The notes below the pieces were generated by a model. The model worked only from the letters and a program-made list of their open reading frames with translations, was not told where the DNA came from and did no database searches. The position numbers and the translations under genes are program-made. Below, in pieces: positions 8,351 to 43,024 of a stretch of DNA of 64,000 nucleotides. Each line of letters begins with the position of its first letter. Positions within the stretch are counted from its first letter, which is position 1. This DNA comes from a virus. The stretch spans positions 1 to 64,000 of the IMG/VR virus record IMGVR_UViG_3300037308_000134. One strand, 5' to 3'.

Positions 8351-11332
8351 TCAACAAGAAGCAAAGCCACAGGAGTAACACTTAGAACATCCTTCTTCTC
8401 TGACAAATGACATATCTCCACAAGCTGGACAAATATCTTTATTCTTATACGTAGATGGATCATGTTCTTCGTGTGAAGCGTGCTTCACATCTGCATCTAC
8501 TACACCACCGTTAACTTTAAATCCAAAATGATCTGCAAGAACTTTAGAGATGGCATCTGGCAAGCTTCTAATTCTATTCGGTCCAAATCCAACACTCTTT
8601 GATCCGCCTATACCATTAAGCTGAGCAACCAAGTGACGAACCCGATCTCTTGGTGTTGTACTATCTTCTAATCTTAAAACCAAAGACAACATTCTTCCGA
8701 GAGCATCTGCTAAAGCAGCAATATCATATCCAGGCTTACCAACGTTAACAAATATCTCATATGGATTTTCGTTAGCATCATTATTAATTGTTATATACGC
8801 ATCTCCAGTTGGTGTTTCTGTTTTATATGTGAAACCTTTCATTACGACATTACGCTTTTTACTTTGAACTTCTTTTTTAGGCTCTTCTTTTACTCTTTCT
8901 AAAACACCCTGACGACTACCCTCTCTCATATATGTAATACCCTTAAGACCAAGTTTGTACGCTTGCGTGTAAAGCTTTTTAACATCTTCTACTGTATGAT
9001 TATTTGGAGCATTAACAGTCTTTGAGATTGAAGCGTCAACATATTTTTGAATTACAGCTTGAACTTTTACATGATCTTCTGGAATTAAGTCTGAAGCAGA
9101 AGCAAGCCAATCTGGCTTTTCGTTTGGATGTTTTTCTTGCCATAATGCATAAAGATAATGACTCATCAAATGTTCTCCAATACGATCTCTACGCACAAAT
9201 TCAAACTCAAATACGGGTTCAATTCCAGAAGTTGTATTTGCCATTAAACTGGTTGATCCAGTTGGGGCTTGCATAAGAGTAAGTGAATTTCTAATACCGT
9301 TTTCTGCTATAAGTTGTTGAAGTTTTTCTGGAAGCTGTTTAATGAAGAGTCCTTGAGGATATTTTTCTTTATCAAATTTATTAAATGCGCCTTTTTCTAT
9401 TGCTATTTCTACTCCAGCTGTATATGCTACATCTCTGATTTCACGATATAGCTTATCTATGAAATCTAATGACTCTTGAGAACCGTATCGTAGATGCATC
9501 TTGATAAGTAAATCACCAAGACCCATTGTACCAAGACCAATTCTACGCTCTCCATTTAACTGTGTTTCTTTAATTGTTGGAAATACATACGGGTCCATAT
9601 CAACAACATTATCTAAAAATCTGACAGCGATTGGAACTATTTTCCTTAACAATTGCCAATCAAATGTAGCTGGAGTATCTATTGAATCCCACTTTGCTAA
9701 ATGTGATAAATTGATTGATCCAAGATTACAAACCCCATAAGGTGGAAGTGGTTCTTCACCGCAATTTGAAATAACCATATCATTGGCTATAAAATTATGC
9801 ACCACTGGTACAGTCATATCATATACATCATGTAATCCATCAATTATTTTTACAGACTTAACAAACCAATTCTTGCCAATTGGTTTCTGTAATGTATATG
9901 ATTGTTTTTTCTTATGTTTGGATTTTTTAACATATCTACCAAAACTATCTCTGTCACACCAATTAGAATGATTTAAATTACTCACAATACTATGCTGACC
10001 GTGTTCTATAACCTCTAAATTAGATAAAACATTATTTAAAGCGTTTCCATCTTTATGATGCACATCATCTTTATTAGAAACATGAAAGAATTTTGAAGCC
10101 AAAAATCTATGTTCATTATGATATTTATTACCAACTAATCCGATAGCACTATATTGTTCATTTTTCATCATTCTGTTTAATCCAATAATTTTATCTCCAT
10201 GCTCTAAATTTTTTGCTTCTTTCCATCCTTTAGTAGTTAGAATTTCATGATCTGGAGTACACGTCAGTGATCCTTTATAAGTATCAACTTTAACTACAGT
10301 AACTTGTTTACGTGTTAACCATACTTTTTCTGCTTGTCTCAATCCTAAATCACCATTTTCTTCACGACAATAAACATATGGTTTTTTACCAACTAAATCT
10401 TTAATAGACACATAACCTTCAGAAGTAAATATTTTTGTATCACCAATTACACATGGATTTACACAATTTACCTGGTTCCAGTACCAGTTGTTGTAATACT
10501 TCTGACAGCGCCCCATAAACACAACGCCTGGCTCAGCACTTTTCCACGCTGCATCTGCTATCTTATCCCATATATATCTGGCTTTGATTGTTTTATGAAC
10601 GATTACTTTCTTACCAAGCGCTTTCCATACTTTCAAATCACCATTCCATTTCTCATCATATTCTGGATCGCTTGTATCTGGAAATACTAAATTCCACTCT
10701 AAATCTTTATCTACAGCTTCCATGAAATCGTCTGAGATACATACAGATAGATTAGCGCCATTTAATTTAGTCAAATTCTGCTTAACAGTAATAAACTCTT
10801 CTATGTCTGGATGCCAATCCCACAACATTTCCATTAAAGCACCCCTTCTTGAACCGCCTTGTTGAATAATATCTTTCGTAGCTACTGAAAAGAGTTCTGC
10901 CCAATTAATCGGTCCAGAAGAAAAACCATTGACTTTTTTTACTCTAAATCCACGCGGGCGTAGACTTGATAAATTAATTCCCACACCACCGCCACGTGAC
11001 ATAATCTCTACCATCTCTTTTAATGAATCTATAATACCGCCCCTAGAATCTTTTGGGCTGGGGATGACAAAACAGTTATAGAAAGTTACAGCATAACCAG
11101 TTCCAGCTCCAGCTAAAATACGACCACCTGGAATAAACTTAAAATCTGTCATTGCATCATTAAAAAGAGCTTCCCATTTTTGGCGAAGCTCTGGAGTTTT
11201 TTCTATTGATGCTACTGCTGTTGCAACTCTTTTCCACATTTCTTCTGGAGTCTTTTCCATTGGAGAACCGTCAGGATTTTTCGCTGCATAGCGATCTAAA
11301 AACACCTTTTCTGATAAGCCCGTGAGTTGCAT
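8351..11332 (-). CDS. nrdJ: Class II (adenosylcobalamin-dependent) ribonucleotide reductase interrupted by an intein
   Basis: GGGVGINLSSLRPRG, split NPC/CGE active-site motif and C-terminal CPACG...CSKCYSCG zinc module. 993 aa including a 230-aa insert. Confidence 0.9.
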   Translation of the reverse strand: MQLTGLSEKVFLDRYAAKNPDGSPMEKTPEEMWKRVATAVASIEKTPELRQKWEALFNDAMTDFKFIPGGRILAGAGTGYAVTFYNCFVIPSPKDSRGGIIDSLKEMVEIMSRGGGVGINLSSLRPRGFRVKKVNGFSSGPINWAELFSVATKDIIQQGGSRRGALMEMLWDWHPDIEEFITVKQNLTKLNGANLSVCISDDFMEAVDKDLEWNLVFPDTSDPEYDEKWNGDLKVWKALGKKVIVHKTIKARYIWDKIADAAWKSAEPGVVFMGRCQKYYNNWYWNQVNCVNPCVIGDTKIFTSEGYVSIKDLVGKKPYVYCREENGDLGLRQAEKVWLTRKQVTVVKVDTYKGSLTCTPDHEILTTKGWKEAKNLEHGDKIIGLNRMMKNEQYSAIGLVGNKYHNEHRFLASKFFHVSNKDDVHHKDGNALNNVLSNLEVIEHGQHSIVSNLNHSNWCDRDSFGRYVKKSKHKKKQSYTLQKPIGKNWFVKSVKIIDGLHDVYDMTVPVVHNFIANDMVISNCGEEPLPPYGVCNLGSINLSHLAKWDSIDTPATFDWQLLRKIVPIAVRFLDNVVDMDPYVFPTIKETQLNGERRIGLGTMGLGDLLIKMHLRYGSQESLDFIDKLYREIRDVAYTAGVEIAIEKGAFNKFDKEKYPQGLFIKQLPEKLQQLIAENGIRNSLTLMQAPTGSTSLMANTTSGIEPVFEFEFVRRDRIGEHLMSHYLYALWQEKHPNEKPDWLASASDLIPEDHVKVQAVIQKYVDASISKTVNAPNNHTVEDVKKLYTQAYKLGLKGITYMREGSRQGVLERVKEEPKKEVQSKKRNVVMKGFTYKTETPTGDAYITINNDANENPYEIFVNVGKPGYDIAALADALGRMLSLVLRLEDSTTPRDRVRHLVAQLNGIGGSKSVGFGPNRIRSLPDAISKVLADHFGFKVNGGVVDADVKHASHEEHDPSTYKNKDICPACGDMSFVREEGCSKCYSCGFASC
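9764..10453 (-). mobile_element. Intein (aa 294-523 of NrdJ) carrying an HNH homing-endonuclease domain
   Basis: Begins at Cys (CVIGDTKI), has TCTPDHEILT block B, internal HHKDGNALNN...EHGQH, and ends VVHNFIANDMVISN followed by +1 Cys of CGEEP. Codons checked at both junctions. Confidence 0.85.
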
Positions 11333-12420: not shown

Positions 12421-12440
12421 ATGCACCTCCTTTTCTCCAC

Positions 12441-12467
12441 AAAAAAAGCTCACGCAAAGGTGAGCTT
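12441..12467 (-). terminator. Intrinsic terminator hairpin (AAGCUCAC-N6-GUGAGCUU + U7) inside the leader of 12055..12420
   Basis: 8-bp stem 12446-12453/12460-12467 with a U-run followed by GUGGA. Confidence 0.7.
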
Positions 12468-34078: not shown

Positions 34079-34081
34079 TTG

Positions 34082-34152
34082 AGCATCTGAGGGGATTCGG
34101 ACCCCTATTTCCTCATTGGAAGTGAGGGCGATTTCCTTTATCGTACAGATGC
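34082..34152 (-). tRNA. tRNA-Gly (anticodon UCC)
   Basis: Hand-folded. 7-bp acceptor GCATCTG/CAGATGC, D stem CGAT/ATCG, anticodon stem CCTCA/TGAGG with loop CTTCCAA, T arm AGGGG-TCCGAAT-CCCCT, discriminator U. No encoded CCA. The T-loop has C at position 55, which is atypical. Confidence 0.75.
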
Positions 34153-34269
34153 ATCGCAAGCGAGAAACATTCAACACGTAAGCACTGCTCATCAAGTTGG
34201 CTCGCTTGCGTTACTTTTGATCTTTGCAGATCAACAAAGTGTATGTGCTTGATTTTAACGCACTTACGC

Positions 34270-34345
34270 TGGTCAGCGTGGCAGGACTTGAACCTGCAAC
34301 CTCACGATCCCAAATCGTGCGCTCTGCCAATTGAGCTACGCACTG
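34270..34345 (-). tRNA. tRNA-Pro (anticodon UGG)
   Basis: Hand-folded cloverleaf. C1-G72 pair, D arm GCTC-AATTGGCA-GAGC, anticodon stem CACGA/TCGTG with loop TTTGGGA (G37), T arm GCAGG-TTCAAGT-CCTGC, discriminator A, encoded CCA. One C-A mismatch in the acceptor stem. Confidence 0.85.
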
Positions 34346-35789: not shown

Positions 35790-36494
35790 TTAAACCTCCA
35801 TTTCTTTTACTCTATCTTTATGCCATTGTATTTGTTTTTTATGATATGCAATTGCATCTGTACGAATCTTTTTCCTAAGCTCTGGATATTTTTTATCCAA
35901 CTTCTTTATCTGTTTAATTACATCAGCTTGCTCATCCATTAACCCGTTCATTATGTCGGAAATAATCATATCTAAATCCCAACCATATACCATATAAGAC
36001 TCAGCCATTGGAGAAAGTTCAGCTTTGACAATCACTTTATCTTTTACATTAAAACACAACTCTACATACGCTGGTTCTTTTCTACCCATTAATCCTTCAG
36101 AAATATCACGTGGACTTAAACTAAAATCAATATAACAATCGTCTTTTCCCCAAATGCTATCTACACACTTTTGAAACCAATCTTTTGGAAGCTCGCCTTC
36201 AGTTTCCTCATCTCTGCCAATATACTTATACCAGTGCATTTTAAAACCAGTCGGTTTATACAAAAAGTTTTCTCTATGTTCAGCACACCATGGACAATCG
36301 TAACTTTCACACCAGCAATATGGATGCATCATAAACACATCATTTTCAAAATCCACTCCATATCCATTTTCTCCACCTAATCCATTACCACCGCTTTTAC
36401 CAGTCTTCAAGCTAAGCTGACGAATAAGCTCAACAAATAAATCACCTTTATCAGCACCTTTTGGAATTACTATTTCTGCTGTTACTTTTTTCAT
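35790..36494 (-). CDS. Hypothetical protein
   Basis: 234-aa ORF in the operon. Confidence 0.6.
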   Translation of the reverse strand: MKKVTAEIVIPKGADKGDLFVELIRQLSLKTGKSGGNGLGGENGYGVDFENDVFMMHPYCWCESYDCPWCAEHRENFLYKPTGFKMHWYKYIGRDEETEGELPKDWFQKCVDSIWGKDDCYIDFSLSPRDISEGLMGRKEPAYVELCFNVKDKVIVKAELSPMAESYMVYGWDLDMIISDIMNGLMDEQADVIKQIKKLDKKYPELRKKIRTDAIAYHKKQIQWHKDRVKEMEV

Positions 36495-36808
36495 ATTGCT
36501 CCCTTCTTTATTTCTATCTTAACTTGTTGACCACGAAGTGATCTGTAATATTCTTCTTTTTGTTTTGTCCACGGCCTTACAGTTTGCCATCTGTGACCAC
36601 CATTTATCGTATCAGACCATAGTTCTATGATCAGCAATTTAGTTTTTGGCAAATCATAATATCCACCAGCATATTCTGTATCTAGTCTAATAAACTCTTC
36701 AGACAAATCATCATAATGTGTTGCCAAAACTTCTGTCACATATGTCTGTAAATATGTCACATGTTCTGGCATTTTCTTATAAACATGACTAAATTTAATT
36801 GTTTGCAT
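36491..36808 (-). CDS. Hypothetical protein
   Basis: Start trimmed to MQTIKFSH at a TAAtATG junction with the rtcB stop. Confidence 0.6.
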   Translation of the reverse strand: MQTIKFSHVYKKMPEHVTYLQTYVTEVLATHYDDLSEEFIRLDTEYAGGYYDLPKTKLLIIELWSDTINGGHRWQTVRPWTKQKEEYYRSLRGQQVKIEIKKGAI

Positions 36809-36809
36809 A

Positions 36810-38012
36810 TTACGCTTTAATAACTGCAAGTGGAGTTAATTCCACTTTAATATCAATCAGATCAGCTTGATTACGCATCACAATGTCTATATCTTTATAT
36901 GCGCCAGGTGCTTCATCTAAATCTTTTTCATTTCTAATTGCATGCACAATTCCAAGATCATCCAATCTTTTCTTCTCATCTTCTAAACTCAAAGTTTTTC
37001 TGGCTACATTTCTACCCATCTTTCTTCCAGCACCATGTGAACATGATTGGAAACTATCTGGATTTCCTTTGCCTTGAACAATATAACTGTGTGTTCCTTG
37101 TGAGCCTGGAATGATTCCAACAGTATCTACACGTGCGAGCGTAGCGCCTTTACGATGTACCCATACATCTTTTCCAAAATGATTCTCTATTGCTGCATAA
37201 TTATGTGCGATATTAATAAATCTATCATCTTCTAAACGCATAAAACTACAACCAGCAATCATAGAAAAATCCAGCATGATACGTTTCATCATTAATCTAC
37301 GATTAGCTAAAGCAAAATCCACACAATATTTCATTTCTTTGAGATACATGTGTCCCTCTTTACTGTCTATTGGCAAAAAAGCTAATTCCCATTCTGGAGG
37401 AATCTTAGAGTGCCATTTAGCGTTTAGTTCTACAGCTTGTTTGTTATAGTAATCAGCTACCTGTTTTCCTAAGTTACGTGAACCAGAATGAATCATCAAC
37501 CAAATATAACCATCTGATCCTTTTTGAATCTCTATAAAGTGATTTCCACCACCAAGCGTTCCAACCTGATGAAGTGCAGCTTCCCATTGACGTTCTATAA
37601 TTCCTTTGTGTATTTCTTCACCATATTCTTCTCTGTCTGGAAGAAGCTTAATGTTCTGTGACTCTTTATGATGTTCAAATCCAACTGGAACTGAAATACG
37701 AATTGCGCCCATTATTTTTTTAATCTGTTCAACTGTAATTTCTTTAACTGGAGTTTTATACGCACACATACCACAACCGATGTCTACACCAACAGCATTT
37801 GGAATGACTACATCTTTTGTAGCAATCACTCCACCGATTGGCATACCATAACCAACATGTCCATCTGGAGATAATGATATGTGATGAAAAGTAAATGGTA
37901 ATTTTGCTAAATTTTCACACTGCTCAACCATTGACATATCAGAATAATATTGTTCTTCTGGTATCCAACTTTTAATTGGAACATTAAAATTATCTTTTTT
38001 ATAAGTAAACAT
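36810..38012 (-). CDS. rtcB: RNA-splicing ligase RtcB (3-prime-phosphate/5-prime-OH RNA ligase)
   Basis: PDGHVGYGMPIGG, GGGNHFIE, HSGSRNLG, HRKGAT and CSHGAGR motifs. Confidence 0.9.
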   Translation of the reverse strand: MFTYKKDNFNVPIKSWIPEEQYYSDMSMVEQCENLAKLPFTFHHISLSPDGHVGYGMPIGGVIATKDVVIPNAVGVDIGCGMCAYKTPVKEITVEQIKKIMGAIRISVPVGFEHHKESQNIKLLPDREEYGEEIHKGIIERQWEAALHQVGTLGGGNHFIEIQKGSDGYIWLMIHSGSRNLGKQVADYYNKQAVELNAKWHSKIPPEWELAFLPIDSKEGHMYLKEMKYCVDFALANRRLMMKRIMLDFSMIAGCSFMRLEDDRFINIAHNYAAIENHFGKDVWVHRKGATLARVDTVGIIPGSQGTHSYIVQGKGNPDSFQSCSHGAGRKMGRNVARKTLSLEDEKKRLDDLGIVHAIRNEKDLDEAPGAYKDIDIVMRNQADLIDIKVELTPLAVIKA

Positions 38013-38013
38013 A

Positions 38014-38517
38014 TTATTTATTCAATTCTTCATGTAATTCCATATGACAATTAAAACATAATAAATCACACTTCTTTAATTCTTTAATAATTCTATCTAT
38101 CTGCCAATCCATCATTTGCCCTATTTCATATTCTTTTTCATCAGGATTTTTATGATGAAAGGTTAAAGCAGAAAGACATTTATCATAATTACATTTTTTA
38201 CATTTTCCACCTAAATAATTTACTGCCCACTGCTTTCTTCTTAATAATTCTTTTTTTCTCCTAATATTTCTTAATTTTTTATAATTATCGCTTGTTCTAA
38301 TTTTGTGTAAATATATTTTTTGACATTTATCACATCTTGCCCTATATTCAGGTTTACCAGTTTGTGTAAAAGAACTTTGCCATTCACACAATTTTAATTG
38401 TTTACAATCTTTACAAACTTTTTTAATTTTATGTGCGAAAGAATTTGGATCAATTTCTTTTTTCCATTTCCTTTTAAGTTCATTTCTTTTTTTTAATGTT
38501 TTTGGACTATTTTTCAT
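38014..38517 (-). CDS. Free-standing HNH homing endonuclease
   Basis: LTFHHKNPDEKE...CDLLCFNCHMELHEE HNH core plus CxxC zinc pairs. Wedged 1 nt from the rtcB start. Confidence 0.8.
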   Translation of the reverse strand: MKNSPKTLKKRNELKRKWKKEIDPNSFAHKIKKVCKDCKQLKLCEWQSSFTQTGKPEYRARCDKCQKIYLHKIRTSDNYKKLRNIRRKKELLRRKQWAVNYLGGKCKKCNYDKCLSALTFHHKNPDEKEYEIGQMMDWQIDRIIKELKKCDLLCFNCHMELHEELNK

Positions 38518-38535
38518 ATTATGATTATATCACAA

Positions 38536-38697
38536 TTATGATTGTGTATCAATCATAACATGGCTATCTGGCATAATTGCTACGTGCTTATATACAAACG
38601 GAAGATTAGCTAAGTGTTTTGTCTGCTCCATAGCTCCATCTTCTATATCATCTAGCCACATTTTTATTGGTAATTGTTCTGTGTCTACTACTTTCAT
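38536..38697 (-). pseudogene. Orphan 5-prime fragment of a second rtcB allele (53 codons)
   Basis: Hand-translated MKVVDTEQLPIKMWLDDIEDGAMEQTKHLANLPFVYKHVAIMPDSH then VMIDTQS-stop. Matches the RtcB N-terminus up to the MPDxH metal site. Confidence 0.7.
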
Positions 38698-38858
38698 ATA
38701 TTACTTTCCAAATAAAAATAAAAAGCTGAATCTAAATGCATATTTCAACGAATCTAATTGATTCATAGTGTTTAAAAACATTTTATAATGTAAATAGAAT
38801 ATCTTATGCACTCTAACTAATCTTCCCAAAAATCCTCTCTTTTTTAAAATAATCTCTG

Positions 38859-39140
38859 TCATAGTTTTCCTTTTTTTAAAGATTTGATCGCATCTTGAAA
38901 TGCTTTTAACGTTAAAGCATCACTAGATGCGCCAATGTGTTTATACATATTTTCTTCTTCAGTCTTAGCATATTCTGACATCCATAGTAAAAAATCAGAT
39001 AAATTTTTTGTGCGTCTATATACTTCACGTGCTACTTTTTCAAACTGACTTTCTTTATGCTGCATAATCTCAACTTCTGGTAATTCTATTGTGATAACTT
39101 GAGATAATGCATCTACTCTCTTAATTTTAGTTATTTTCAT
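38859..39140 (-). CDS. Hypothetical protein
   Basis: 93-aa ORF with no obvious SD. Confidence 0.55.
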   Translation of the reverse strand: MKITKIKRVDALSQVITIELPEVEIMQHKESQFEKVAREVYRRTKNLSDFLLWMSEYAKTEEENMYKHIGASSDALTLKAFQDAIKSLKKGKL

Positions 39141-39257
39141 AAATATGTATAAATATGTCTTGATATGTACACGTATATCTTACGTCAGAAGTATATGAAG
39201 CGTCAAGAGAGTCAATCTATATCAAACTATAGCAAATGTGTCGTTTTGTGAAGACCA

Positions 39258-39581
39258 CAAAAAAAGCACACCAATATGTAGGGGAGAAAGACCGTTCAAC
39301 TACCGCCATTCCAAGCAGAGGCTTCAACAGGTTTCCCCATATTCGCTTGCAAGGTCAAACAAATAATTGCCCTTACTTTCTAATTGCTAGAGCCTCCGCA
39401 CTAATTACTTAAGTCATGCTTTAAAGCAAAGCTGGAGCTTTAATTGTAATAGTTATGGCTCTGAAACACTGCCTTTTTACCTCATCACTTGACGTTGGCA
39501 ATCTAATTCATCATTAGACAGACAGCTACCTTACTCGTGCGTAGCGAGTTAGTTCAGTCACCCCTACATATCAATGTGCTT
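39258..39581 (-). ncRNA. Unclassified ~320-nt highly structured RNA with a 21-bp terminal helix and U-tail
   Basis: Own promoter 7 nt upstream. 5-prime 21 nt (39581-39561) pair with 3-prime 21 nt (39284-39264), including 3 G-U pairs valid only on minus. Followed by a U-run. Several internal helices. No ORF. Confidence 0.7.
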
Positions 39582-39588
39582 AATAACA

Positions 39589-39617
39589 AGTATATATACT
39601 CTACTATGTCATGTCAA
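39589..39617 (-). promoter_or_regulatory. Near-consensus sigma70 promoter TTGACA-17-TATACT driving the structured RNA
   Basis: TTGACA at 39617-39612 and TATACT at 39594-39589. Confidence 0.65.
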
Positions 39618-39750
39618 GTGTTGGTTTTGCGGGGGTAGGGATTTGCCGAGAACACTTCTACCAGTCGAATGAAAGTAGTCTCAGGCCAAGACCAATGCGC
39701 TCGTATAGTCACCCTACATGATTGTAATCGTAAACGGATATATTACAATC

Positions 39751-40698
39751 TTACATTTGGCTAGTGTCTACCTTTTCCACCACCCCGCTATCTCCAACGC
39801 TCTCCAGCAGTTTGTTTTTATACCATTCTGGTAAACCGCGAACTGCTGCTCTAAGTATTTGATCTTTATATGACTTATAAAGAAACTCTTTTATGTTTTG
39901 TTCTTCTTCTTCTGTAATATCTGTTTGAACTTCTTTCATGAGTGGACCGATGTCTTTTGGTGATTGTGTAATCTGATCTTTCTCTTTCAAGTGTAAAAAT
40001 GCTTTTTGCCAACGTGCATCAGACTTGAAACTTTCTACATACTGATCTACTCCACCTTTTGTTGTTTTTACCTTCCATTCTGTTGCATGACGCTCTTTAA
40101 ACGCTTCACGTACATATTTTGTAAACATCGGAAACACGCTTCCACGAAATATCATCTTCTCCACATAGTTTTTAATGACTACACCTTCAACTGTTTCACC
40201 ACCTAAATAACTTTTTGTTTCCAAAAGCTCTTTAATTTTGTCTACATCAGCTTCACCGTAATACAGCTCTGGAATTACATCTATATCAAAAGCTTCTGCT
40301 GCTGATTGTAGCTCTTCACGTGTCATCCATTGACCATTTGCCATTGCGTCAAAAAGAACTAAACCATTTTTAGGGCGATTTTCATACTTTAATGTATTAT
40401 GCTTAGGTTTAGATAAGTATTCACAGTAAAAATACGTATCTGGTTTAAACGTCTGTAGAATGTGAAGCATGCTTCTTACATAATCAGCTGCCTGAATAAA
40501 CATTTTATCTACTTCACGCTCACCATCACGAAAGACTACACTCTTGGAACGCATAGAAAGCTCTCCAGTATCTGTTTTACCAAAACCAAACAGTGATCCA
40601 TCAACTTTTTCTTGGATGGAAACTTTGCCAAGTAGAGCGTTCTCTGTCATAGACGAGCCAAGAGTTAATATTTTAGGATATGATGTAATATGATTCAT
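39751..40698 (-). CDS. ATP-dependent RNA ligase (nucleotidyltransferase superfamily)
   Basis: Motif I EKVDGS (KxDG), motif IV EGVVIK and downstream FTKYVRE. 315 aa. Confidence 0.75.
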   Translation of the reverse strand: MNHITSYPKILTLGSSMTENALLGKVSIQEKVDGSLFGFGKTDTGELSMRSKSVVFRDGEREVDKMFIQAADYVRSMLHILQTFKPDTYFYCEYLSKPKHNTLKYENRPKNGLVLFDAMANGQWMTREELQSAAEAFDIDVIPELYYGEADVDKIKELLETKSYLGGETVEGVVIKNYVEKMIFRGSVFPMFTKYVREAFKERHATEWKVKTTKGGVDQYVESFKSDARWQKAFLHLKEKDQITQSPKDIGPLMKEVQTDITEEEEQNIKEFLYKSYKDQILRAAVRGLPEWYKNKLLESVGDSGVVEKVDTSQM

Positions 40699-40699
40699 A

Positions 40700-40771
40700 T
40701 TAATAAAATAATGCTGAACTTATAAATCCAGCTATTAATCCTATAAATGCTGCAAAAATTATTTTCTTCAT
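40700..40771 (-). CDS. Hydrophobic micro-ORF (23 aa)
   Basis: MKKIIFAAFIGLIAGFISSALFY. Its stop forms a TAAtATG junction with the ligase start. Confidence 0.4.
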   Translation of the reverse strand: MKKIIFAAFIGLIAGFISSALFY

Positions 40772-40929
40772 ATTAAAACCTCAAGTGTGGTTGGATAGAA
40801 GTCTATTATCGGGCTTCTTAAACACAGGAGTTTCCGATATTAGTATCTGTGATCCTAAGCTTTCGTCTTAGACTCCTCATTTCTTACAGCCAACCTCACC
40901 GACTGGAATGACCAGCCACACTTCAAGCT
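40772..40929 (-). other. Structured RNA element (leader or sRNA) with alternative pairings
   Basis: Two 5-prime segments (AAGUGUGGCUGG and GUGAGGUUGG) can each pair with one 3-prime segment, CCAACCACACUU. Internal hairpins CTAAG/CTTAG, AGGAGT/ACTCCT and GGCUGG/CCAGUC. Confidence 0.4.
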
Positions 40930-41040
40930 TTAATGATTCATCTTTTTATCAAACTTAATGTACTGCGCTATATATAACAATAATAAAGGCCAGCCAATTA
41001 ATAAAAACGCCAATACTATAATTTTATCACGTGTTTTCAT
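40930..41040 (-). CDS. Hydrophobic micro-ORF (36 aa)
   Basis: MKTRDKIIVLAFLLIGWPLLLLYIAQYIKFDKKMNH. ATGA overlap with the upstream stop. Confidence 0.4.
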   Translation of the reverse strand: MKTRDKIIVLAFLLIGWPLLLLYIAQYIKFDKKMNH

Positions 41041-41270
41041 AATTTTATTTTTTTATTACCACATTTTCCACACTCTCCATCTATTGTCTTTGTCATGCAC
41101 ATACAGAAAGAACACAAACTAAGACTGCTTTCTTCTTGCGCATCATTTAAAACATCAAATATTTCCAGTAAATGCGTTTTACAAGCACGTATCTCTATAT
41201 TAGCGTTTTTCCAACGATAATATGATGTTTGATTTAAATTTTGAAAATCTTCACAATCTTGACAGCTCAT
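41037..41270 (-). CDS. Cys-rich zinc-binding small protein (paralog of 42047..42217)
   Basis: Start trimmed to MSCQDCEDF after SD AAAGGA. YYRWKNANIEIRAC motif and C-terminal CxxC pairs. Confidence 0.6.
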   Translation of the reverse strand: MSCQDCEDFQNLNQTSYYRWKNANIEIRACKTHLLEIFDVLNDAQEESSLSLCSFCMCMTKTIDGECGKCGNKKIKL

Positions 41271-41488
41271 ATATTTCCTTTCACATATGTATCTATCCAC
41301 CACTTACCACAACGTGTGCATTTGTTTAATAAATAATCAGTATATTTATCTCCATAATTTTCTGAAACAGTAAAATCTACTTCTTCTCCAGTTCCAATAA
41401 CAGCTTGGATAGGAATCATACCTTTTTTAGCACGTTTCGCTTTCTGTTTAATAATTTTATGTCCAAACAACCAACATTTCCAATTCAT
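41267..41488 (-). CDS. Small zinc-ribbon-like protein
   Basis: 73-aa ORF with a CTRCGKWW tail. Confidence 0.55.
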   Translation of the reverse strand: MNWKCWLFGHKIIKQKAKRAKKGMIPIQAVIGTGEEVDFTVSENYGDKYTDYLLNKCTRCGKWWIDTYVKGNI

Positions 41489-41489
41489 A

Positions 41490-41882
41490 TTATTTCTCCA
41501 GTTTTTTCTTCCACTTTTTATCTGTCTGTGTAAAATAATGCATCAAAATCAACGCTTTACCATCATCACTGATTTCTTTCATAAAATTAAACCAGTCTTT
41601 CTGTAATTGACGCTGTTCCGCTTCAGTTAATTTCGTATAGTTTGGTAGACCTTTCTGGAACTGATTCTCTGAATATGGACTACCAGCCCAATTCAATTGC
41701 AATCCAACTCCATATTTAATAGCAAACTCATCATATGGAAACGAACATAACCAATCCCACACTTGTTTCTTCGCTTCTATTGGTGCTTTCGGAAATCCAT
41801 GCTCATCCCAAAACGTACATTTTAATGTATCTTTAAATTCTTCTGGAAAATGAATACCACACTTACTGCATTGAAATTTCAT
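41490..41882 (-). CDS. Hypothetical protein with N-terminal CxxC
   Basis: Start trimmed to MKFQCSKCG after SD AAAAGGAG. Confidence 0.6.
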   Translation of the reverse strand: MKFQCSKCGIHFPEEFKDTLKCTFWDEHGFPKAPIEAKKQVWDWLCSFPYDEFAIKYGVGLQLNWAGSPYSENQFQKGLPNYTKLTEAEQRQLQKDWFNFMKEISDDGKALILMHYFTQTDKKWKKKLEK

Positions 41883-41886
41883 ACAG

Positions 41887-42075
41887 TTACTCCTTTTCAT
41901 AATCCAATAAATCTAATAATGCATATAAATGTCCAATTAATATCTGACCCTGACAGTTGGCACAATCTGGATGATATCCTTTGCACTTATCTCTGCCAAA
42001 GCCTTTTTCCATCAGCTTAATCATACGCTTAGTAAGTTCAATTTCCTCAAGCTGCTTTTTGGTTGGCTTTTTCAC
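41887..42075 (-). CDS. Small Cys-rich protein
   Basis: GTG start preceded by SD AGGAGG. CKGYHPDCANCQG. Confidence 0.5.
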   Translation of the reverse strand: MKKPTKKQLEEIELTKRMIKLMEKGFGRDKCKGYHPDCANCQGQILIGHLYALLDLLDYEKE

Positions 42076-42217
42076 GTTCCTCCTGAACTTTGTTTAATGC
42101 ATCAAATATCTCCCTTAGATGAATCTCACACGCACGAACTTCTACATTGGCGTTCTTCCAACGATAATACGCATGCTTATCAGAATCTTGTCATTCATCA
42201 CAATCTTGACAACTCAT
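42047..42217 (-). pseudogene. Paralog of 41037..41270 with an in-frame TGA at codon 9
   Basis: MSCQDCDE-TGA-QDSDKHAYYRWKNANVEVRACEIHLREIFDALNKVQEE.... SD AAAGGAGAA and TAAtATG junction are intact. Confidence 0.5.
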
Positions 42218-42218
42218 A

Positions 42219-42476
42219 TTATTCTCCTTTCAAACAATAAATACTGACTCCCTGACCTTGTTTGTCAGCCAGATAACACACATTACTATCTTTCGTAAAT
42301 CTATACACCCGAACACTACCAGTCTGATATATCATATCTTTTGCTGTTACCACATCTTTGTTAAAATTTGTCATCAGACGATCCCATGTTCCTTTATTAA
42401 AAATATACAATATACTTCCAACTAACATTACAACCATTAACAAAATCATGACAATGCTATACCAATAATCTTTCAT
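42219..42476 (-). CDS. Small membrane protein
   Basis: Start trimmed to MKDYWYSIVMILLMVVMLVGSILYIF after SD AAAGGAGGA. Confidence 0.6.
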   Translation of the reverse strand: MKDYWYSIVMILLMVVMLVGSILYIFNKGTWDRLMTNFNKDVVTAKDMIYQTGSVRVYRFTKDSNVCYLADKQGQGVSIYCLKGE

Positions 42477-42538
42477 ATATATCCTCCTTTGCATTTAATA
42501 ATTGCTGTTTATCTTTTTTTGTCATTCTACGCATAGAA

Positions 42539-42784
42539 TTACCTAACCATCGAAGGTTGCTTCTGACGTTTTTTACTTGCTGTTTTGATCTTTTTCTTTT
42601 GTAATGCATAGCGTTTCCTTAAAATCTGTAAATCGTTTTTGTGTTTCTTAGCGTGTGCCAATTGTGCTTCCAACGAACATATCTCACACCACTCTTCATA
42701 CATACCATGTACAAAATCCAATACTCCACCTTCTCCAACCCAATGTACTGTCGCTTCACGTTTATGACAATGTTGACACTTCAT
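42539..42784 (-). CDS. Zinc-binding small basic protein
   Basis: CQHC...CEIC pairs and a Lys-rich tail. Confidence 0.6.
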   Translation of the reverse strand: MKCQHCHKREATVHWVGEGGVLDFVHGMYEEWCEICSLEAQLAHAKKHKNDLQILRKRYALQKKKIKTASKKRQKQPSMVR

Positions 42785-42882
42785 ATTTTAAACAGTTTTT
42801 TAATCATCCAATATGCAAGCCAAAATCCAACTCCAAAACAAAGCCCAAACCAAATAACTGATGATATAAATAAAATAGCCAT
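42781..42882 (-). CDS. Hydrophobic micro-ORF (33 aa)
   Basis: MAILFISSVIWFGLCFGVGFWLAYWMIKKLFKI. ATGA overlap with the next start. Confidence 0.35.
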   Translation of the reverse strand: MAILFISSVIWFGLCFGVGFWLAYWMIKKLFKI

Positions 42883-42905
42883 ATTATTTGTTCATATTTT
42901 ATAAG

Positions 42906-43024
42906 TGACGCATGAAGGATTTGAACCCTCTCTCCATCTGTCTTCGCTTACGACTCAGCTTAGATACCCCAGCTACGAGAGCTGAGTTTTAGACGGGTGC
43001 TTCCAATGTCTACACTAATGCGTC
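42906..43024 (-). ncRNA. tRNA-like RNA: canonical acceptor, D and T arms, with a 66-nt non-canonical domain in place of the anticodon arm
   Basis: 7-bp acceptor GACGCAT/ATGCGTC, UA, D arm GTGT-AGACATTGGAA-GCAC, T arm GAGGG-TTCAAAT-CCTTC, discriminator A. No 5-bp/7-nt anticodon hairpin could be drawn. Confidence 0.4.

Follow-up and report, generated by a model that had tools for sequence, protein, structure and literature searches.

The 64,000-nucleotide (nt) stretch analyzed here, designated the window (positions 1 to 64,000 of IMG/VR virus record IMGVR_UViG_3300037308_000134), almost certainly carries a gene for a structured RNA of ~320 nt that has its own sigma-70-type promoter and represents a rare phage family. 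This family is absent from Rfam 15. The RNA, designated RNA B, is encoded on the minus strand from window position 39581 to ~39258, such that RNA position p corresponds to window coordinate 39582−p. The evidence on RNA B is all comparative, and every member of the family comes from uncultured phages.

The ends of the gene are set by a promoter, a long terminal helix (P1) and a terminator-like tail, all on the minus strand. The −35 hexamer TTGACA (39612–39617) and the −10 hexamer TATACT (39589–39594) are spaced by 17 nt, and the latter stands 7 nt before the first P1 base (A at 39581). Together they scored 11/12 in a consensus scan, which found just three such sites within 7 kb. P1 is formed by RNA positions 1–21 (39561–39581) pairing with positions 298–318 (39264–39284), which gives 21 base pairs (bp) including three G-U pairs and can be extended to 23 pairs in 24 nt. 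The 64-kb window has no second inverted repeat of this kind, nor does one arise in any of 100 shuffles. Directly 3′ of P1 lies a U7-GUGG tail (39255–39265), which together with P1 makes an intrinsic-terminator-like end. The tail corresponds to TTTTTTGTGG, found three times on the minus strand versus 0.47 expected. Because the other two sites (854–863 and 12437–12446) directly follow canonical GC-rich hairpins, U7-GUGG is the terminator tail used by this genome. The expected product is a discrete transcript of ~318–324 nt (39258–39581), since the P1 3′ arm runs straight into C-U7-GUGG. Note that a generic terminator scan of positions 36000–43000 missed 39255–39265 because the stem in question is the long-range P1. 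The promoter, the 21-nt helix with its three wobble pairs and the terminator signature had all been described in an earlier note made by reading the window, and each was found as described.

The same note had listed a longest open reading frame (ORF) of 14 codons. This holds for ATG-initiated ORFs on the RNA strand, and the TTG-start ORFs of 20–36 amino acids (aa) that are present are unconserved. Selection at the RNA level, which had been proposed from the wobble pairs, is consistent with a fold z-score of −4.75 for the minus strand versus −2.82 for the plus strand and with the strand-specific G-U covariation reported below. Without the terminal helix, the interior of RNA B has a fold z-score of just −1.76. 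Thermodynamics alone are therefore insufficient to establish an ornate core, and it is the comparative data that supply the proof.

Searches of GenBank phages with blastn and megablast gave no match, either with the RNA B locus and its 7-kb neighborhood or with typical members of the RNA B family and of a neighboring RNA (element A, described below). Exact 20-mer and ligase-based searches of IMG/VR likewise gave no RNA B homologue. The first homologue was found among loci retrieved through RtcB, at L024:6241–6569 (L-numbers are our labels for loci), 53 nt after RtcB. This copy has its own promoter (TTGACA-17-TATCTT) and folds with a z-score of −4.55; its closing helix comprises 25 pairs and is unrelated in sequence to that of the window copy. 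A pattern made from blocks shared by the window and L024 copies then retrieved more members from IMG/VR and from JGI/ENA metagenomes, all of which were confirmed by nhmmer (E 1e-11 to 1e-39), and an independent pattern for the 3′ domain gave the identical IMG/VR set. Retrieval by way of a small zinc-ribbon protein supplied two further, more diverged members (L125 and L129), which stand outside the 11-sequence alignment used below. The family as collected has 14 distinct lineages including that of the window, 13 of them represented by full-length copies and one by a partial copy. Every one lies on a phage or metagenome contig, members are 291–359 nt long, and nhmmer E-values for homologues range from 1e-11 to 1e-89. 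A scan of 185,579 reference genomes yielded five pattern matches; RNA B has no prophage or host link because all five were chance matches by nhmmer.

Covariation was assessed on an alignment of 11 sequences with 67 consensus pairs, using as controls the same helices with their 3′ partners slid by one to three columns as well as 500 shuffles. Changes on both sides are tolerated with pairing retained at 49 of the 67 predicted pairs. A standard pair is formed by 91.4% of alignment cells versus 37–50% in the slid controls, and the covariation score is 0.603 versus at most 0.176 in those controls. No shuffle out of 500 reached the observed value by any measure. The window copy has canonical bases at 53 of its 63 consensus pairs, and a 1-nt register shift in helix P9 accounts for most of the exceptions. 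P1 spans 14–29 bp in all 13 full-length members and its sequences are unrelated between members. A comparison of homologous loci, suggested in the earlier note, thus found the terminal helix kept in every full-length member together with strong covariation.

These data also bear on the proposal that the locus acts as DNA, for example as a recombination site or a miniature inverted-repeat transposable element (MITE) with 21-bp terminal inverted repeats, or that it is a small protein gene. The ends do form an inverted repeat at the DNA level, and many homologues have a stop-free frame reading ...YLLDFAR..GGN... across the 3′ domain. We regard this proposal as exceedingly improbable. The repeat occurs once in 64 kb and no multi-copy family was found, so that a MITE or transposon remnant was rejected, also on account of the many strand-specific G-U pairs with which the helices covary. 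The peptide frame was rejected as well, since it has three stops in the window copy, lacks a conserved start and changes frame with respect to the invariant block upstream; it is best read as a by-product of the conserved RNA sequence.

From the alignment, RNA B is predicted to fold into at least ten helices plus a pseudoknot, closed by the end-to-end P1. The P2 hairpin (RNA 33–49; 39533–39549) has five pairs, three of them compensatory, with 98% of cells paired and an invariant 7-nt loop, CUAYGCA. An invariant block, AUUAGUGCGGAGG (AUUAGUGCRGAGG; RNA 177–189; 39393–39405), pairs through its GUGCR with YGCAC of the P2 loop to form the pseudoknot. Covariation of the loop Y with the block R is seen in 10 of 11 sequences, among which are two independent C-G switches. 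A three-way junction (RNA 56–114; 39468–39526) was seen in independent minimum free energy folds of most members and as consensus hairpins in alifold. It is composed of P3 (56–62/108–114), P3a (63–69/75–81) and P3b (82–85/101–104 plus 88–91/96–99), and its closing helix differs by member (CUGUCU/AGGCAG, UUCUUC/GAAGAA, UCUAUCU/AGAUAGA). The long-range helix P5 (RNA 120–125/188–193; 39389–39462), in which four of six pairs are compensatory, encloses a variable region (RNA 126–176) that differs in length and content between members. The conserved 3′ domain (RNA 201–297; 39285–39381), with 91–96% of cells paired and 21 compensatory pairs, contains P6 (201–206/292–297), P7 (210–224/275–288), P8 (228–229/270–271) and P9 (242–246/251–255), the last capped by a GAAA tetraloop. 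All of these features are on the minus strand.

Some of the internal structure drawn earlier from the window copy survives this comparison. The hairpins ACUCG/CGAGU and UCUAAU/AUUAGA are the conserved P2 and P3a, respectively. The third proposed hairpin, AAAGC/GCUUU, and a 12-nt palindrome are copy-specific because both lie within the variable region. The 8-bp helix GCGGAGGC/GCCUCUGC is peculiar to the window copy: positions in it are also used by the covariation-supported P5 and by the pseudoknot block, and its 3′ partner is non-complementary in relatives. Separately, we observed that the variable region of the copy at L105:1455–1792 carries an insert resembling the 3′ half of a transfer RNA (tRNA), with a GGGTTCGATTCCCGT T-arm followed by CGGCCCCTCCA.

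To place RNA B among described families, cmscan was run with the 4227 models of Rfam 15, and a sequence was counted as a member of a family when its score was at or above the gathering threshold. A scan of the whole window at gathering thresholds gave two tRNAs only and no RNA B match. A permissive scan (E ≤ 10) of 701 nt around RNA B gave only noise. Permissive scans (E ≤ 5) of four other members (L110, L111, L112 and L117) gave one marginal match, to drum RNA (RF02958) in L117. The suggestion in the earlier note that the RNA could not be assigned to a known class is therefore upheld, as neither the window copy nor the other members have a credible match at gathering or permissive thresholds, and the cmscan proposed there as a check returned no confident match. 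RNA B might still belong, as a strongly diverged member that Rfam models fail to score, to one of the families already described (drum, ROOL, GOLLD, HEARO, YrlA/Y RNA, group I introns or RNase P), and the L117 match to drum is full-length. That match is weak (20.6 bits versus a gathering threshold of 43; E = 0.13 in a 451-nt search), and its alignment pairs segments that family covariation assigns to other helices, in conflict with P6 and P7, so drum was rejected. Drum was also without a match in the window copy (E ≤ 10) and in L110, L111 and L112 (E ≤ 5). ROOL (RF03087) and GOLLD (RF01998) gave no match at E ≤ 10, and at 291–359 nt the RNA B members compare with ~580 and ~800 nt for these families. 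No Rfam match was obtained for HEARO/OMEGA (RF02033), YrlA (RF02553), Y_RNA (RF00019) or RNase P at the thresholds run. Among the neighboring ORFs there is no IscB, no reverse transcriptase and no Ro60 (no TROVE domain in the 19 ORFs scanned); an HNH ORF of the homing-endonuclease type (167 aa) near the window copy is absent from other RNA B loci. Divergent membership in one of these families is thus very improbable.

Several other candidates were tried and rejected. A group I intron is incompatible with the intergenic location, with flanks that differ at each locus, with the absence of an RF00028 match and with ends that pair with each other instead of with exons. For tRNA or tmRNA, ARAGORN and Rfam find just tRNA-Gly and tRNA-Pro (34081–34345) in the window. 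A retron msr-msd was considered for its terminal repeat, but no reverse transcriptase is found among the neighbors in the window or at other loci. No description of RNA B came up in the literature, whether searched by motif sequence or by topic, and the family could be among the 10,006 unnamed candidates of an IMG/VR csRNA survey (PMC10690425).

The gene lies within the largest local intergenic gap (39141–39750), which is also a local maximum of GC content (~40%). It is located between an upstream RNA ligase gene (PF09414; 39751–40698) and, downstream, a 93-aa ORF, two 53-aa ORFs, the 167-aa ORF and RtcB (36810–38012). This position, the L024 copy 53 nt after RtcB and the joining of 5′ and 3′ ends by P1 are what one might expect if RNA B were a substrate or partner of RNA repair, cut and re-joined or circularized by a flanking RtcB or Rnl-type ligase. 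The tRNA and RNA-repair neighborhood stressed in the earlier note is not a trait of the family, since RtcB is near RNA B in only two of 14 lineages, a ligase in one and tRNAs in three. Viewed from the other side, RNA B is present in just one of 80 IMG/VR RtcB loci. On the contig of the closest ligase relative (86% identity), the RNA B position is taken by an unrelated ORF, and ligase relatives at 57% identity carry RlaP/PNKP cassettes and no RNA B. No self-cleaving ribozyme motif was found in the Rfam scans of RNA B. We consider a role as repair substrate improbable.

Most relatives are not self-terminated and are joined via P1 to the next or previous ORF. The description of RNA B as a self-contained promoter-to-terminator unit is therefore accurate for the window copy and does not extend to most relatives, which are fused through P1 to an adjoining ORF. 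A strong promoter directly precedes RNA B in the window, L024 and L113/L115j. The Shine-Dalgarno (SD) sequence and/or AUG of the next ORF falls within the P1 3′ arm in L107, L109, L110, L111 and L113/L115j. In eight of 14 lineages, P1 is overlapped or abutted by an ORF for a zinc-ribbon protein of 49–61 aa with the motif CPxCGELxVKxYPxSS...PCxKC, which has no Pfam or PHROGs annotation. When loci were retrieved through this protein, all eight carried RNA B within a few nucleotides, and in three of them the RNA B copies are too diverged for the DNA patterns. The association holds in both gene orders. The zinc-ribbon start codon is inside the P1 3′ arm in L109 and L110, and in L111 the SD is inside the arm and the start codon 7 nt beyond it. 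The zinc-ribbon stop codon is inside the P1 5′ arm in L105, L117, L125 and L129. The generic features of a cis-acting leader (a promoter-proximal 5′ untranslated region with an SD or terminator on a conserved helix) were found in the window, L024, L113, L109, L110, L111 and L107, and were lacking in L105, L117, L125 and L129, where RNA B follows the zinc-ribbon ORF. As a further observation, the ORF right after RNA B in L024 (6585–6797; 70 aa) and in L113/L115j (L113:3195–3359; 54 aa) encodes a tiny sigma-70 region-4/Mor-like regulator, and RNA B therefore often heads operons that start with small transcription regulators.

In the reading we favor, P1 would be the output helix of a sensor or ribonucleoprotein (RNP) core, and RNA B a factor-stabilized OFF switch in cis or an autoregulatory RNP. 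Folding of the core, probably stabilized by a bound factor, would allow P1 to close and thereby shut off the element fused to it. The basic zinc-ribbon protein is the likely factor in its eight lineages. In many relatives the fused element would be an SD or start codon belonging to the small ORF that follows, such that closing of P1 would turn translation initiation off. In the window phage it would be the intrinsic terminator ahead of the block running from the 93-aa ORF through HNH to RtcB, such that read-through would be turned off. RNA B would in addition be set free as a stable RNA with protected ends. What speaks for this reading is that the P1 3′ arm is fused to SD/AUG in relatives and to a U-tract in the window; SD/AUG sequestration and U-tract terminators are the two classical types of expression platform. 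The account as a whole, including its mechanism, has in our estimate roughly an even chance of being right.

Several observations weigh against it. Known protein-binding operators and most riboswitch aptamers are far smaller than RNA B, with its ~320 nt and at least ten helices. The zinc-ribbon ORF precedes RNA B in four lineages, where the RNA is for that reason unable to control initiation of that ORF. No zinc-ribbon homologue was detected in the 64-kb window or in five other lineages, and a hidden Markov model of the protein run against six-frame translations found none in the window, L024, L113, L107 and L108 loci; the proposed effector is thus missing for the very copy studied here. The window terminator looks constitutive, with a tail shared with ordinary terminators, and a second promoter-like site (39206–39177; 9/12) stands ahead of the next ORF. 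With an ordinary terminator tail and a second promoter-like site, a stand-alone RNA gene fits the window locus equally as well as an attenuator does. Note also that promoter-like matches are frequent in AT-rich DNA, the same scan having found 41 against 32 expected.

RNA B could instead act in trans, as an ornate RNA in its own right or as a subunit of an RNP, comparable either to ROOL/GOLLD-type phage RNAs or to a ribozyme assisted by a small basic protein. P1 would then serve only for end protection or as an RNase III-type processing stalk, and the overlap with ORFs would reflect genome compaction. Its size and complexity (at least ten helices, the pseudoknot and the GAAA hairpin), the promoter and genome-typical terminator of the window copy, and a protein link that does not depend on gene order, like that of drum, skipping-rope and DUF3800 RNAs, are all in keeping with this possibility, and a P1 of 20 bp or more in most members fits an RNase III substrate. 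Compaction would not require SD/AUG or a U-tract to recur exactly on the P1 3′ arm, and in L109 and L110 the start region of the partner ORF would be lost if RNase III cut within P1. Neither multimerization nor catalysis is in evidence. A trans-acting role of this kind is the main alternative to the reading favored above and somewhat less probable than it. In a further, bolder reading, which we consider less probable than not, RNA B would be the RNA component of an unrecognized phage RNP with the zinc-ribbon protein (or, in window-type lineages, with another factor or a small molecule), amounting either to a new, unusually large regulatory switch class with both transcriptional and translational platforms or to an RNP with its own biochemical activity.

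A second RNA, element A, is located next to RNA B and is not part of it. This tRNA-like RNA (39629–39788, minus strand) shares ~37 nt with the 3′ end of the RNA-ligase ORF. The copy of the 5′ arm of RNA B that the earlier note had reported as a partial duplicate (AUGUAGGGUGACU, 39719–39707) is indeed present, and belongs to the T-arm of element A. An 18-mer of element A, GTAGGGTGACTATACGAG, occurs exactly in 16 IMG/VR contigs, and its terminal helix of 6–12 bp covaries in every copy (window, L089–L104 and L005). All copies have a UG-GCGGAAUAGGUAGACGC block, then a variable region, and then GUAGGG-UGACUAUA-CGAG...CUCG-(G/U)CAAAU-CCCUAC. Judged by the E. coli tRNA-Leu sequence, UG-GCGGAAUAGGUAGACGC is a tRNA-Leu-type U8/G9 plus D-arm, with UGGCGGAAUAGGUAGACGC as the D-arm block. 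The T-arm loop holds the conserved insertion UGACUAUA-CGAG...CUCG-(G/U)CAAAU, removal of which leaves a canonical GGGUUCAAAUCCC T-arm. ARAGORN found no tRNA in element A, even after the T-loop insertion had been removed in silico; at relaxed settings it recognized the acceptor, D and T arms, whereas an anticodon arm was never called consistently. Element A has no Rfam match. It is often found in phage tRNA arrays or ahead of ORFs, for example immediately upstream of RtcB in L005, and it adjoins RNA B in the window phage only. Derivation of RNA B from element A, directly or by circular permutation, was rejected: the shared AUGUAGGG(G)UGACU is specific to the window phage, and the P1 arms of other RNA B copies are unrelated, with only a GGG-UGAC junction in common. 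In L101 (6130–6600, minus strand), a skipping-rope RNA (RF02924; 58.7 bits) lies between two tRNAs and is followed by a copy of element A; several non-tRNA structured RNAs can therefore be present in one phage tRNA array.

At ~33% GC, the window is AT-rich. It is tailed-phage DNA and encodes portal, large terminase and ribonucleotide reductase. In an independent assembly (Logan SRR12687343; 102.6 kb) the intergenic gap is 100% identical, and the gene caller placed no gene in it. No gene encoding the exact protein sequence of the window ligase was found in the assembly collection. The two tRNA genes, tRNA-Gly(UCC) and tRNA-Pro(UGG) (34081–34345, minus strand), are 5 kb downstream of RNA B on the same strand. 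The 167-aa ORF (38014–38517, minus strand) encodes an HNH homing endonuclease (PHROG E = 5e-26). The 53-aa ORF ahead of it (38536–38697, minus strand) is a duplicated N-terminal fragment of RtcB, 40% identical to the N-terminus of the intact protein, and GC content around the HNH ORF (37950–39150) is merely 23–29%. Positions 38014–38697 look like a mobile endonuclease insertion that brought along part of another rtcB allele. Elsewhere, residues ~288–525 of the 993-aa large subunit of ribonucleotide reductase (8351–11332, minus strand) match PHROGs of the HNH-endonuclease/terminase type and not ribonucleotide reductase, which suggests an intein or an inserted endonuclease domain.

Large, highly structured RNAs are rare in bacteria and phages, and new classes have tended to bring new biochemistry, including ribozymes, riboswitches, RNA-guided nucleases and RNA nanocages. 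The RNA B family has a well-supported secondary structure, a tertiary pseudoknot and a candidate protein partner, and its closing helix is wired to three kinds of neighboring signal (SD/AUG, stop codon and terminator). RNA B, the zinc-ribbon protein and the P1 fusions can all be synthesized and assayed without culturing the phage, which makes the system tractable. Even if its function should prove modest, RNA B fills a gap in Rfam and indicates that phage intergenic "gaps" beside RNA-repair genes can hold independent RNA genes. Element A is a second uncatalogued phage RNA, present in at least 16 viral contigs and often within tRNA arrays.

Among known systems, ROOL and GOLLD are, like RNA B, large multi-helix, pseudoknotted phage RNAs without an assigned function that are known by comparative analysis and are sometimes found near tRNAs. 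They differ in length (~580 and ~800 nt versus ~320 nt), tRNA proximity is inconsistent for RNA B, and RNA B has in addition a closing helix of 14–29 bp placed on expression signals and a zinc-ribbon partner. The drum, skipping-rope and DUF3800-I RNAs are conserved, are followed by intrinsic terminators and have a "compelling association" with a single protein, whose gene may be on either side (Weinberg et al. 2017, PMC5737381). The terminator is matched by the window copy of RNA B and the protein link by its zinc ribbon, although that partner is not of the DUF3800 type and most RNA B copies have no terminator and overlap ORF starts or stops. RNase P RNA has universally conserved regions that are absent from RNA B, for which there is also no evidence of catalysis. 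RNase P RNA, or ribosomal RNA precursors with processing stalks, nevertheless resemble it in their long end-pairing P1, a length of ~300–350 nt, a small basic protein partner and a duplex suited to RNase III. Compared with OFF riboswitches and autoregulatory leaders (ribosomal-protein leaders, and the lambda N leader with its RNase III site), RNA B is far more elaborate, lies 3′ of its partner ORF in four lineages and has no identified anti-terminator or anti-sequestor structure. Like those leaders, it carries SD/AUG or a U-tract on its closing helix, is often promoter-proximal and has a partner ORF that overlaps the helix.

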